Notes under the pieces: model-generated
Seen by the model: the letters and a program-made list of their open reading frames with translations, nothing else
Database searches by the model: none
Told to the model about the DNA's origin: nothing
Made by a program: the position numbers and the translations under genes
Source: a virus
Lineage: Duplodnaviria; Caudoviricetes
Length of the DNA stretch: 64,000 nt
Strand: one strand, 5' to 3'
Virus record (IMG/VR): IMGVR_UViG_3300043427_002668
In this document: positions 1 through 4,063 of the stretch, one piece after another
Layout of the letters: each line of letters opens with the position of its first letter
How positions within the stretch are numbered: position 1 is the first letter of the stretch

Positions 1-781
1 TTCCGAAGTTAACCATACCCTGACGGGTCTCAGCAATCTGACTGTTTAAAGCATTTAACTGAGAGTTAACTTGTGAAGACAGTGCTGCGAACTGGCTATT
101 GAAGAGACCATCTCTGGCACCCCAATAGTCGTGGCGGCAGTGGTTGAGGTCAGTGTTACGCTCAATCAGCATACGATTGAGTTCATCATTCTTGAGAGAA
201 TTGATGAGGTCACGGGTCTTCTCATTTTCATAAGAAACCTGCTTGCTGAGATCATACTTGCTCTCAGCAATCTCTTTGCTGAGTTGTGACTGTCCAAGTG
301 CTACAGCAGCAGCAACCTTAGCGGACTCAAGTGCAGCAGCAGTAGCAGTCTTCTCAGTGGCAAGAAGAATTTCACTGCTGAGTTTCTGAGCAGCAAGGTC
401 TTGAGTTGCTCTTAAAGCAGCAAGATCACGGGATTGATCAAAATCTCTTGCCTGACCAGAAATATAGAAATCAGTAGCTCTTTGCTGAATTTTATCAGCA
501 GCTTCGTCTACTTTAACTGCTGTGTTATGTCCTACGTTCAGAACATCACGGTTGGTTGCTTCTGAATGCTCAGCAATAGCGTATCTGGTATCACCAAAAC
601 CATTTGCTAATTCTCTACGAATATCGCCTTGACCGATAGCATTAGCATAACGGTTGTCAGCGGAACGAGTAGCAACATCGTAACGGATCTCACCACGCTC
701 TACAGAACCTTCTCTACGGATGTCTGAGTGCTGTGCTGAGAGTGCTGCCCAAGGATCGGGCATATAAACTGGATCTGCCAT
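1..781 (-). CDS. Ala-rich, probably coiled-coil hypothetical protein; 3' end runs off the window
   Basis: Not in the ORF track; translated by hand. ATG at 781 preceded by AGGAG, open for 260 codons to the edge (MADPVYMPDPWAALSAQHSDIRREG...ENEKTRDLINSLKNDELNRMLIERN...). Confidence 0.85.
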   Translation of the reverse strand, partial: MADPVYMPDPWAALSAQHSDIRREGSVERGEIRYDVATRSADNRYANAIGQGDIRRELANGFGDTRYAIAEHSEATNRDVLNVGHNTAVKVDEAADKIQQRATDFYISGQARDFDQSRDLAALRATQDLAAQKLSSEILLATEKTATAAALESAKVAAAVALGQSQLSKEIAESKYDLSKQVSYENEKTRDLINSLKNDELNRMLIERNTDLNHCRHDYWGARDGLFNSQFAALSSQVNSQLNALNSQIAETRQGMVNFG

Positions 782-798
782 TTTTTTCTCCTAAAGGT

Positions 799-1017
799 TA
801 ATCGGAGAGCAATACAATCCAATTCCTCCCTGACATAATGCCAGACGAATCGAGCCCACAGACGACCATAGGTGAATCGTCTGGGATTATTTCTCTTTGA
901 AATCGGACTGTATTACCCGATTAGAGATGAAGCATTAATGAAAGAACCATTTTTGGAATCTTTTAGTAATACATCTTATCTCTAATGAGAGGATTGCTCC
1001 TCGCAAGATTATTTATG
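799..1017 (-). ncRNA. Candidate structured 5' leader / cis-regulatory RNA
   Basis: About 230 nt non-coding stretch with several stems, a GAGGA-GCAA-TCCTC GNRA hairpin (989-1002) and a 19-bp long-range helix (799-820 with 905-923) whose G.U pairs form only on the minus strand. Confidence 0.55.
1010..1017 (-). promoter_or_regulatory. T4-type late promoter-like CATAAATA
   Basis: Matches NATAAATA, at the 5' end of the structured leader. Confidence 0.5.
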
Positions 1018-1026
1018 TAAATAAGA

Positions 1027-1170
1027 TTATAACCAAGAAATTTCTACTTCACGAGGAACTACTACAATTGATACTTCTGGAAGTTGAGATTTAGTATTTG
1101 CAAGTAAAGTTGCAATTTGTTCTGCAGTGTAAGTGTCTGGTACTTTAAGTACTAATGTTTTTGAATTCAT
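1027..1170 (-). CDS. Small hypothetical protein, 47 aa (MNSKTLVLKVPDTYTAEQIATLLANTKSQLPEVSIVVVPREVEISWL)
   Basis: Translated by hand; protein-like composition; co-oriented with neighbours. Confidence 0.55.
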   Translation of the reverse strand: MNSKTLVLKVPDTYTAEQIATLLANTKSQLPEVSIVVVPREVEISWL

Positions 1171-1199
1171 AATTTTCAATAGAGTGTACAGATTATATA

Positions 1200-1490
1200 T
1201 TAAGTTGAACGGTTTTTACGCTCACTTTGCCACTTTAAAAAACCTTCCATATTATTGGGATATTTTGGTTTCCCTCTACCTCTTGGTTTCTTCTGATTTT
1301 TCATTGCAATTTCATAGTTACTCCAACATAATTCAAGTTCTTCTGGACCATTATCGAAGTTATAAAAACCATCTATCCAAAAGTCAAACTGAGATTCGTT
1401 TTTCATATAATTGCACCACAATTTAAATGATGCAAATACGTATAACCATCCAAGTCTGAGTTTTGAAAAGAAGTCTTTGAGTGTAATCAT
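1200..1490 (-). CDS. Hypothetical protein, 96 aa
   Basis: AGGAG 5 nt upstream of ATG; basic C-terminus. Confidence 0.7.
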   Translation of the reverse strand: MITLKDFFSKLRLGWLYVFASFKLWCNYMKNESQFDFWIDGFYNFDNGPEELELCWSNYEIAMKNQKKPRGRGKPKYPNNMEGFLKWQSERKNRST

Positions 1491-1591
1491 AGATACTCCT
1501 TTAAACTCAGTATTATATATTTGCAGATCAAAACATAACAGTGCATTATAGGTATAACTTCTTATAATTACTTATGAGTTCTTTTTCTTTT

Positions 1592-2254
1592 ATGAAGATC
1601 TTTTTAGACACAGCAGATGTTTCGTTAATTGGTTCAGCATATGATACTGGACTATTGGATGGAGTCACCACAAATCCCACTTTGATTCTTAAAAGTGGAA
1701 GACAATTAAAAGAAGTTATCGAAAATATATCACAAGCATTTCCAGAGTTAGAAAGCATTTCCGCAGAAGTTGTCGCAGATGAAGCAGAGGAAATGCTTTC
1801 ACAAGCACAAAAGTATTACTCAATTGCACCAGCAGTTACAATCAAAGTTCCTTGTACTGTAGAAGGACTGAAAGCGTGTAACTTCTTATCAAAGCAAGGT
1901 ATCAAAACAAATGTAACTCTGGTGTTCTCTGTAGCACAAGCAATACTTGCTTCAAAGGCAGGAGCAACGTATATCTCACCATTCGTTGGTCGTTGGATGG
2001 ATAATTCGATTGATGGTATTGAACTCATCAAGAATATTCGTAAAGCATTTGATTACTCAGGGACTAGCACACAGATTCTTGCAGCATCTCTTCGTGATGT
2101 GAGGCAGGTAGAACAATCCGCTCTTGCTGGTGCTGATGTAGTTACGATTCCTCCGACAGTATTTTGGGGAATGTATAAGAACATTATGACTGAAAAAGGT
2201 CTTGAATTGTTTCAAAAAGATTGGAATGAGGTACTAAAAAATGAAGAAGTTTAA
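1592..2254 (+). CDS. talC: Phage transaldolase (TalC/MipB family)
   Basis: MKIFLDTAD start, GVTTNPTL, IKVPCT Schiff-base Lys, YISPFVGR, ILAASLR; start placed at the second ATG. Confidence 0.97.
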   Translation: MKIFLDTADVSLIGSAYDTGLLDGVTTNPTLILKSGRQLKEVIENISQAFPELESISAEVVADEAEEMLSQAQKYYSIAPAVTIKVPCTVEGLKACNFLSKQGIKTNVTLVFSVAQAILASKAGATYISPFVGRWMDNSIDGIELIKNIRKAFDYSGTSTQILAASLRDVRQVEQSALAGADVVTIPPTVFWGMYKNIMTEKGLELFQKDWNEVLKNEEV

Positions 2255-2741
2255 TAATTTTATTCTTAACATTACAATAGGAATTATTGATTTTCTTTAT
2301 TATGGATTACCAATTGAAAGGTTTTGGGTTCTTGAAACGATTGCAAGAGCGCCTTATTTTTCTTTTCTAAGTGTTCTTCATCTAAAAGAATCACTGGGAC
2401 TTAGAACAGAAGAGCATTATGATCTAATGAGAGAACACTTTGAGCAGACAGTCAATGAAACGGAACACCTCAGGGAAATGGAGTTACGTGGTGGAGCAGA
2501 TCGCTGGTTTGATCGCTTTTTCGCTTATCATTTGGTTCTCATCTACTATTGGGTTATGGTTGTCTATTATCTTCTTGATCCTGTTTCTGCTTATCACCTG
2601 AATGCTGGTGTTGAACTTCATGCAACAGAAACATATCTAAACTATCTTTGGTTCCACCCAAAGGATGAAAAGATTTCTCAAATTGCTGTAGATGAAATGA
2701 ACCACTATATTGAACTTAAAAAAGCAATGGAGTTGGTATGA
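2241..2741 (+). CDS. ptox: Plastoquinol terminal oxidase (alternative-oxidase di-iron family)
   Basis: FWVLETIARAPYF, NETEH, ELHATETY, DEMNH di-iron carboxylate motifs. Confidence 0.93.
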   Translation: MKKFNNFILNITIGIIDFLYYGLPIERFWVLETIARAPYFSFLSVLHLKESLGLRTEEHYDLMREHFEQTVNETEHLREMELRGGADRWFDRFFAYHLVLIYYWVMVVYYLLDPVSAYHLNAGVELHATETYLNYLWFHPKDEKISQIAVDEMNHYIELKKAMELV

Positions 2742-4063
2742 AGGGGTTAGTTATATTCGGAGCAACTGGAGATCTTTGTAAAAAGAAATTGATTCCAGCA
2801 TTGTATTCTTTACATAAGAAAAGTCTTTTGCCAAAAGGACTAAAGATCATCGGTGCCTCCAGAACCCAACACACCAAAGAAAGTTGGGTAGAAGTATTGG
2901 GAAGCTATTCTCAAGAGTTTATCAAAAGACTTGAATATGTTCCCTGTGATTTAAGTGATGCCGAATCTCTTAAGTCATTACACGATTATGGGGATATGAC
3001 ATACTTTCTGTCAGTTCCTCCAGAACGATATGCTGATGCTATTACAAACCTAAAAGAAGCAGGTAAGTTAGATGACGCAGAAAAATCTAGAGTTATTATT
3101 GAGAAACCTTTTGGCACCGATCTTCAATCTGCTAATTATTTACAATCTGTGGTTTCTGGATATCTACGCGAAAAACAAGTTTATCGCATTGACCATTATC
3201 TTGGTAAAGATACTGTTAATAACATTCTTGCCACTCGTTTTAGCAATATTCTTTTGGAACCACTATGGAATCGAAATTTTATAGAGGAAGTCCAAATCTT
3301 CGCAACTGAAACAATTGGATGTGAAGGTCGAGCACAGTATTACGATACTGCTGGTGCCGTAAGAGATATGCTCCAGAACCATATGCTTCAGGTTCTGGCA
3401 CTGATTGCTATGGAACCACCTTGTAGAAATGATGCAAGGGAAATCCGTAGAGAGAAAGTTAAGGTTCTAGCAGCCACCAGATTAGGTGATAATGTGGTCC
3501 TAGGACAATATGATGGATACAAGAGTGAGGAAGGTGTGAAGTATGACTCACAAACACCAACCTTTGTTGCTGGTGAGTTGTATATCGATAACTGGAGATG
3601 GAAAGGAGTTCCTTTTCACTTTATGACTGGTAAGAAAATGCCAGTTGGATGTGTGGAAGTTGTGATTAAATTTAAAGCACCTCCACAACAATTGTTTGAG
3701 GGTCACGAATGTAATGATCGAATTGTAATGAGATTACAACCAGATCCACACCTAGATATGCGTATTGATATTAAATCTCCAGGACTAAATGATATGGTAG
3801 AACCAGCACTTCTTCAGTATCATTATCCTGTAGAGAAAGCAATTGATGGTTATGTGAAACTGTTTTATGATGCGATTAATGAAGATCAATCACACTTTGT
3901 TCATGCGGATGAAGTGCTGGAGTCTTGGCGAATTGTTGATGATCTTCTTTGTACGGGAGATTATTGCCCTATTAATACAAGACCTTATTCTTATAAGGAA
4001 GGTGTTTGGGGACCAGAAGAAAAAGCAATTACAAAGTGGGATTATCCACTCAAATTAAAATAG
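2738..4063 (+). CDS. zwf: Glucose-6-phosphate dehydrogenase
   Basis: GATGDL, EKPFG, YRIDHYLGK, RDMLQNH motifs. Confidence 0.98.
   Translation: MKGLVIFGATGDLCKKKLIPALYSLHKKSLLPKGLKIIGASRTQHTKESWVEVLGSYSQEFIKRLEYVPCDLSDAESLKSLHDYGDMTYFLSVPPERYADAITNLKEAGKLDDAEKSRVIIEKPFGTDLQSANYLQSVVSGYLREKQVYRIDHYLGKDTVNNILATRFSNILLEPLWNRNFIEEVQIFATETIGCEGRAQYYDTAGAVRDMLQNHMLQVLALIAMEPPCRNDAREIRREKVKVLAATRLGDNVVLGQYDGYKSEEGVKYDSQTPTFVAGELYIDNWRWKGVPFHFMTGKKMPVGCVEVVIKFKAPPQQLFEGHECNDRIVMRLQPDPHLDMRIDIKSPGLNDMVEPALLQYHYPVEKAIDGYVKLFYDAINEDQSHFVHADEVLESWRIVDDLLCTGDYCPINTRPYSYKEGVWGPEEKAITKWDYPLKLK

Follow-up and report, generated by a model that had tools for sequence, protein, structure and literature searches.

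The locus and its late operon

The window analysed here, a stretch of 64,000 nucleotides in all, is taken from a 115-kb IMG/VR virus record and represents the minus strand of that record. Near its beginning, 245 nt separate a minus-strand ORF of 50 aa (end 1027) from the next ORF on the same strand (start 781), and within this gap lies a structured leader RNA, some 225 bases long here and reaching about 290 nt in relatives, that is itself on the minus strand and precedes a late fibre-protein operon. We give window coordinates throughout; an RNA position n is found, on the minus strand, at window coordinate 1018-n. The features of the locus are the following.

1010..1017, minus strand: T4-type late-promoter-like box, CATAAATA here and TATAAATA in most homologues
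989..1002, minus strand: P0, 5'-terminal hairpin GAGGA/UCCUC with a GCAA (GNRA) loop
921..985, minus strand: domain 1, a nearly invariant irregular hairpin (975-929) closed by an outer helix
985-980/926-921, minus strand: P1, UUAGAG/CUCUAA, the outer helix of domain 1
901..922, minus strand: P2', local hairpin of AAUCGG (922-917) and CCGAUU (906-901)
809..916, minus strand: domain 2, a rod of about 110 nt made of P2-P5
916-899/826-809, minus strand: P2, 18 bp, of which 11 pairs covary
898-891/834-827, minus strand: conserved internal loop of domain 2
890-886/839-835, minus strand: P3, every cell paired (100%), with compensation at one pair (887/838)
884-877/848-841 (plus 875-874/851-850), minus strand: P4, in which pair 879/846 occurs as C-G, G-U and G-C
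872-866/861-855, minus strand: P5, a variable, covarying hairpin
799..805, minus strand: CCGAUUA, which pairs with UAAUCGG (923-917) and so extends P2 outward
779..808, minus strand: 3' tail with CUCUCC (anti-SD-like), a linker, the AGGAG SD (792-788) and the AUG (781-779)
2..781 and on past the window edge, minus strand: first gene of the late operon, 275 aa in the full record

The flanking genes encode transaldolase, PTOX and G6PDH, and they have about 70% nucleotide identity to marine Synechococcus T4-like phages. Only these neighbouring metabolic genes match cultured phages (marine Synechococcus phages); among the cultured phages of INPHARED, neither the leader DNA nor the 260-aa part of the fibre protein that the window encodes found a match. 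In DNA contigs of two freshwater studies, 1016 is followed by 32 other letters and then by 1220, so there are close relatives without the 50-aa ORF that precedes the leader here. Four tRNA genes immediately precede the leader in an L022-type phage (L033:633-1221).

AlphaFold models the first product of the operon (L029:1746-2573) as a single uninterrupted alpha-helix of about 250 residues (10-258, pLDDT 82.5), a fold that would make the protein a very long coiled-coil fibre. Conserved DIRRE-like repeats are present near its N-terminus. It falls in no Pfam family and has no PDB relatives by sequence; its own family comprises 924 metagenomic clusters at 90% identity (about 100 at 50%), all of them hypothetical. 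In all long relatives the fibre gene is followed by a collagen-like gene and then by a Peptidase_C1 (papain-like) gene, and among these three we found no metabolic or transport theme that would indicate a ligand. Two relatives (G001 and G002) encode RegA. Autoregulation by the first gene product was considered and found no support: a single long helix is predicted, and sequence searches of the atlas and the PDB were uninformative.

An invariant AUG within domain 2 (836-834, minus strand) opens a short reading frame. Depending on the genome, this frame amounts to a uORF of 12 codons, overlaps the fibre gene out of frame or extends it in frame, and with neither frame nor stop conserved we rejected it as a uORF. 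Many public records of the protein family, in forms of 286-329 aa, begin at this AUG or at other upstream codons (L173:1501, L170:1501, L179:1501). Their N-terminal extensions look like gene-calling artefacts, the conserved MADP... start lying 11-54 codons downstream; the public annotation is hereby corrected, since the AUG at which many records open the fibre gene lies within the RNA structure.

Conservation and folding of the leader

The preliminary description of this DNA, made from the one sequence, had let its reading stand or fall with homologues and covariation, both of which were found, and with a folding energy better than that of shuffled controls, which was found as well. About 30 distinct leaders, viral and metagenomic, are now in hand, all of them upstream of the same 275-aa gene. 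In IMG/VR, 28 loci carry orthologues of the protein, and most of these have the same upstream sequence; scans with patterns built from the most conserved strings gave more viral and metagenomic members (one of them on a TARA scaffold), and look-ups of divergent proteins gave five additional leaders. Three other candidates (L054, L155 and L156) were chance pattern matches and were dropped as coding sequence. Each leader lies between an invariant TAAATA box and the AAGGAG-N7-10-AUG of the same gene. Model R1, which describes domain 2, scores 98-137 bits in 30 sequences, and domain 1 (model R2) was never found without domain 2. Each domain model finds one copy per genome, including the complete 258 and 250 kb genomes with terminal repeats, and the element was never found elsewhere or as separate domains. 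Where orthologues share less than about 50% identity, or differ at the N-terminus, the upstream gap is too short for the leader and the models find no match, and the cellular genomes searched gave 0 matches to the domain-2 pattern. These observations are best explained by a leader that is specific to one lineage, a freshwater/estuarine group of T4-like cyanophages. One metatranscriptome has contigs over the ORF of a relative and none over the leader, in a comparison that covers four runs and contigs only, where transcript ends and strands are invisible.

The minus strand from 1004 to 782 has a minimum free energy (MFE) of -83.1 kcal/mol; 200 dinucleotide shuffles gave -52.2 +/- 4.1 kcal/mol (z -7.6), and none of them (0 of 200) folded as well. 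In the same kind of shuffling, the plus strand of the leader region reaches a z of only -3.4. The earlier statement that the G.U pairs work on the minus strand only is borne out by the alignment, where the consensus pairs include 169 G.U cells against 28 A.C cells, and by the covariance models, which give 97-137 bits in the sense and 25-52 bits in the antisense orientation, i.e. two to four times as much in sense. The excess of G.U pairs and the sense model scores thus identify the element as an RNA of the minus strand. Three-base periodicity is absent from the leader (0.16/0.18/0.14, against 0.22/0.21/0.35 in the CDS).

Every string that had been named beforehand lies on the minus strand exactly where it had been placed. 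These are UAAUCGG-GUAAUACAGUCC (923-905) with CCGAUU (906-901); GGAUUGUAUUGC-UCU-CCGAUUA (820-799); CCAGACGA (884-877) with UCGUCUG (865-859) and UCGUCUGG (848-841); the GCAA (GNRA) hairpin (1002-989); UUAGAGAU/AUCUCUAA (985-978/928-921); and AGGAG (792-788) with the AUG at 781. RNAalifold and explicit pair counts agree on a consensus made up of P0-P5. All-against-all single-pair covariation was swamped by phylogenetic background, and a helix-level ranking of stacked diagonals was used instead.

At the 5' end, TAAATA is invariant in 24 of 24 aligned leaders and stands at a fixed distance from P0. From the known late-promoter consensus of T4 and the cyanomyoviruses we infer that the box is a late promoter, with a predicted transcript start about 6 nt downstream of it, near 1004-1003. 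Neither TATAAATA nor ATAAATA is enriched within the window. In all leaders P0 begins about 6-8 nt past the TAAATA box, at the predicted start; 94% of its cells are paired, compensatory changes occur at three of its five pairs, and it ranks 3rd of 24,707 diagonals. The purine arm of P0 is SD-like, and in L173 the hairpin is replaced by a wholly different 8-bp version. No terminator was found, so read-through from upstream genes is possible and P0 may not always be 5'-terminal. A conserved AATGTTCA-N4-TGATATAAAA occurs 25-45 nt upstream of the late box in L123:4511-4560, L151, L152, L171 and L173 and is absent in the window. It resembles a -35 box followed by an extended -10 box, and in the relatives that bear it the operon may have a second, sigma-70-type promoter.

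Compensatory changes among the aligned sequences support P0, domain 1 and the rod-like domain 2. In domain 1, P1 shows a G-C to A-U swap, with compensation only in the most divergent pair of sequences; AAAGA/UCUUU has become AGUGA/UCACU in L022/L159, and in eight homologues an additional hairpin of about 60 nt is inserted before the 3' strand. In domain 2, 92.9% of cells are paired, compared with 35-45% when the partners are slid, and both sides have changed at 14 pairs, a count that 0 of 500 shuffles reach. The second partner that had been proposed for CCAGACGA besides its P4 partner, at 865-859, did not survive this comparison: its mismatches are uncompensated, and it lies partly within the covarying P5. 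At 835-843 (minus strand, CUGGCAUUAUGUCAG), the 3' strands of P4 and P3 could also give rise to an invariant hairpin CUGGCA/UGUCAG with a 3-nt loop; this hairpin fits every sequence variant and has no independent covariation.

CCGAUU (906-901) has two partners, AAUCGG (922-917) in P2' and AAUUGG (824-819) in the inner half of P2, and since this strand is common to both, the two helices are mutually exclusive. Among 29 distinct leaders P2' is paired in 94.6% of cells, a score reached by 0 of 500 shuffles, and it ranks 18th of 24,039 diagonals, which places it, together with P3 and P4, in the top 0.08%. One of its pairs is C-G 14 times and U-A 12 times, and another is G-C 19 times and A-U 6 times; on a tree built without the P2' columns, the C-G/U-A state switched at least four times. 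Position 906 covaries with both of its partners. The G/A position of P2' faces an invariant U in P2, and the coupled change at 919 is therefore unexplained by P2 alone. As judged from the alignment, P2 and P2' are both kept by covariation, P2' independently of P2. Of the first two-partner element as originally proposed, a local hairpin in competition with a 19-bp long-range helix, the exclusivity and the covariation of both partners hold, as does a 12-bp core of the long helix. In both the MFE fold and the consensus, however, that helix extends inward (to 899/826, for 18 bp) and not outward across the UCU bulge. The outer 7-bp extension (923-917/805-799) was not upheld, being confined to the window, L001 and L149, with 68% of cells paired and a rank within the top 5.8% of diagonals.

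In nested thermodynamic models the P2 state is ahead by 4-18 kcal/mol in 24 of 24 leaders, and P2' should thus be populated mainly before the 3' strand exists. The form of P2' differs among clades (a 6-bp helix closing a 10-nt loop; an 8-bp helix closing UACG; a shifted helix of 4 bp; next to nothing in L022/L159), yet despite these differing geometries it covers the P2 5' strand in every clade, a combination of variable shape and constant cover that suits a placeholder better than a switch with an exact geometry. The P2 5' strand has a further complement, in most leaders, in the invariant GUAUUAC of domain 1, and this pairing is plausible as a misfolding trap.

In the 3' tail, a 10-nt pyrimidine tract (CUUUUCCUUA) is present in 23 of 24 homologues and not in the window. 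A DNA contig from a freshwater run (X1) has the insertion TAAGGGAAAG between 792 and 793, so close strains appear to differ in whether they have the tract. The SD is predicted to be mostly paired (about 0.2 unpaired); we rejected this masking as a signal, because it is within the range of other genes in the window and the genome. In the P2' state the mean predicted accessibility of the SD goes from 0.17 to 0.28, and in about 14 of 24 leaders the pairing of the freed strand to the pyrimidine tract is worth -12 to -17 kcal/mol, against -5 to -8 kcal/mol for the SD with the tract. In the L006/L147/L148/L150 clade, and in the window with its missing tract, this coupling does not appear or runs the other way, and over the 24 leaders we found no consistent link of the competing helices to SD accessibility. 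The MFE fold of L148 contains a long-range helix between the 5' end and the anti-SD. In L148:1258-1487 (and also in L006, L147, L150, L146 and L178) the 5'-terminal GAGGAGAAA pairs over this distance with UUUCUCCUC, which lies just past P2 and is a near-perfect complement of the SD region; the helix closes the entire leader into a three-way junction and shows one compensatory change, in L146 vs L150.

Possible functions of the leader

The preliminary description had suggested a novel riboswitch or other regulatory RNA. A conserved, strand-specific structured RNA is indeed present at this position; its being a riboswitch is unproven, as the leader offers no ligand logic, no terminator and no consistent coupling to the SD. 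The reading that we favour, though only tentatively, is a constitutive, cis-acting leader of a late mRNA in which P2' is a co-transcriptional placeholder. Transcription would begin a few bases past the late promoter of the TATAAATA type, and the RNA would start with the GNRA-capped P0. The leader would act in cis on the operon for the coiled-coil fibre, the collagen-like protein and the peptidase: P0 and the two rigid domains could shield the 5' end of the mRNA from 5'-end-dependent host decay, and the U-rich tract, the SD and the AUG would be left as the main flexible landing site for the ribosome. The invariant loops would probably serve tertiary folding or a protein partner. P2' would hold the P2 5' strand for the 75-95 nt that pass until the 3' strand is made, and would then be displaced into the stabler rod. 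Against such a leader with a placeholder, it counts that a plain stabiliser needs no 200 or so nt with near-invariant loops and helices, that two exclusive covarying helices are the classic signature of a regulated switch, that the late-promoter motif is unenriched in the window, and that distant or N-terminally different orthologues are without the leader.

An effector-operated switch, either a riboswitch or one bound by a protein, is a serious rival reading, although in our judgement somewhat unlikely. Here the effector, a ligand or else a protein of phage or host, would be bound by the conserved loops and would set whether CCGAUU pairs in P2' or in the inner part of P2. The purine-rich, SD-like strand freed in the P2' state (834-819, GUCAGGGAGGAAUUGG) would then occupy the anti-SD tract of pyrimidines by pairing with it, so that the true SD is released; GAGGAGAAA, the SD look-alike at the 5' terminus, would take this role against UUUCUCCUC in one clade. 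The covariation of both exclusive helices speaks for this mechanism, and so do the stacking energies of P2' and inner P2, which are similar by a hand estimate from nearest-neighbour values. The 10-nt loop of P2' could still pair with the outer 3' strand of P2, but such a pseudoknotted state is impossible where P2' has the UACG loop. The greater strength of the freed strand over the SD as a partner for the tract in about 14 of 24 leaders, the higher predicted accessibility of the SD in the P2' state and the 5'-end/anti-SD helix of L148 likewise favour a switch, but the coupling is inconsistent, failing or reversing in the L006/L147/L148/L150 clade and in the window. Furthermore, the SD is invariant, so its pairings cannot covary, the pairing of the freed strand with the tract is without strict covariation, and complementarity of purine-rich with pyrimidine-rich stretches arises easily. 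The conserved internal loops and the presence of RegA in G001 and G002 would provide a binding site and a candidate protein, but the masking of the SD is ordinary, the genes downstream are without metabolic logic, and there is no terminator. The farthest-reaching form of the idea, a new class of phage sensor RNA in which the P2'/P2 exchange, by way of SD/anti-SD look-alikes, times or doses translation of the late operon according to the state of the host cell, we hold to be unlikely.

It is quite improbable that the element is a stand-alone RNA (one working as a ribozyme, within an RNP or in trans) that is excised from the start of the late transcript, e.g. through RNase III cleavage of the rod of about 40 bp or through self-cleavage, and is linked to the operon by co-transcription only. 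Its size, its two domains, its variable expansion hairpin and its near-invariant loops do resemble those of ncRNAs with complex folds, P2 plus P3/P4 makes a long, nearly continuous duplex, and large orphan RNAs of other kinds (GOLLD, ROOL) occur in phages. However, the element is always found 20-45 nt upstream of the same ORF with no terminator, never elsewhere or as separate domains, and it matches no Rfam ribozyme model at E<=10. Hardly credible is the absence of any RNA element, with a DNA-level signal (for origin, packaging or recombination) or a short stretch of coding sequence in its place: the invariant AUG (836-834) opens a short frame and many public records start the ORF there, but the frame and stop of that short ORF are unconserved, there is no codon periodicity, the indels are not multiples of three, and the G.U-rich helices work on one strand only.

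To our knowledge, structured leaders with evolutionary support are rare before late, apparently structural genes of T4-like phages, and we know of none described for cyanomyoviruses. Between the constitutive cis-acting leader that we favour and a regulated one, the locus provides a test case, either for a new regulatory RNA of an abundant, uncharacterised phage operon (more than 900 protein clusters) or for a conserved co-transcriptional folding intermediate.

Comparison with known RNAs

The preliminary description had recognised no known motif in the leader, and the Rfam scan agrees. Rfam 15, searched with window positions 1-3000 and nine homologous loci (E<=5-10), returned no family at the gathering threshold and chance-level matches on the leader, and its ribozyme models gave no match at E<=10; literature searches found no description of an equivalent element. 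The strings AGAA, GUC and GUAUUAC, which we take to be strings of the hairpin ribozyme, raised the question of a likeness to it, which we rejected on a differing strand topology and the lack of an Rfam match. Phages do carry large orphan RNAs, e.g. GOLLD and ROOL.

With the expression platforms of riboswitches and attenuators the leader shares a strand with two partners, both of whose pairings are compensated, a position in a 5' leader and highly conserved loops. Unlike them it has no terminator, no reproducible link to the SD and no ligand-related genes, and in nested models one of its states is far more stable than the other. A covariation-supported domain in a 5' UTR, as in riboswitches, is present here, its UTR position being deduced from the late-promoter box. 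The 5' hairpin of SRP RNA is a conserved helix that forms transiently during transcription, and P2' is like it in being a weaker yet conserved local hairpin built from a 5' strand whose partner is made much later; P2', in contrast, is known from covariation and energetics alone.

In T4, RegA sites are short, unstructured and AU-rich and overlap the AUG, and control of gene 32 is autogenous, through the ssDNA-binding protein. The post-transcriptional controls of T4 (review: PMC3014915) include the gene 32 leader pseudoknot, RegA operators and hairpins at ribosome-binding sites that late promoters bypass. The leader resembles these controls in its T4-like phage setting, in having relatives with RegA and in standing before a single operon. 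It differs from them in that the late promoter lies upstream of the entire structure and that the first product is a coiled-coil fibre. A RegA-type operator like that of T4 was rejected, because the conserved part consists of about 200 nt of helices that end 20-45 nt before the AUG.

Stabilising hairpins at the 5' terminus are known from leaders of the E. coli ompA type, and RNase III sites occur in phage leaders such as the R sites of T7 and the N leader of lambda. The present leader is like both in having a hairpin at its predicted 5' end and a long irregular duplex upstream of the ribosome-binding site (18-bp P2 and 15-bp P3/P4), but it is far larger, and its sequence more conserved, than either class requires.

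The one family with a recurrent weak match is freshwater-2 (RF02980; gathering score 49.9), whose scores are 24.7 bits for L160 and L037 and, at the leader tail, 17-22 bits for four of five related genomes, that of the window (G000) among them. We rejected identity with this family: the matches are sub-threshold and align only the tail with the ribosome-binding site (the U-rich tract plus AAGGAGAAAAcAAAUG), similar weak matches recur at other ribosome-binding sites, even in control genomes, and no match above the cut-off occurs anywhere in the five related phage genomes. Both RNAs have a U-rich tract followed by AAGGAGAAAAcAAAUG, but the leader is about three times larger and has other helices. 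In kind, it is nevertheless closest to orphan leader motifs such as freshwater-2 and the cyanophage motifs of Weinberg et al. 2010 (PMC2864571), which likewise are structures in the 5' UTRs of genes of unknown function and come from aquatic metagenomic and viral DNA only. The leader is a new RNA family of this orphan structured kind, and one in which the competing, covarying helices are unusually clear.
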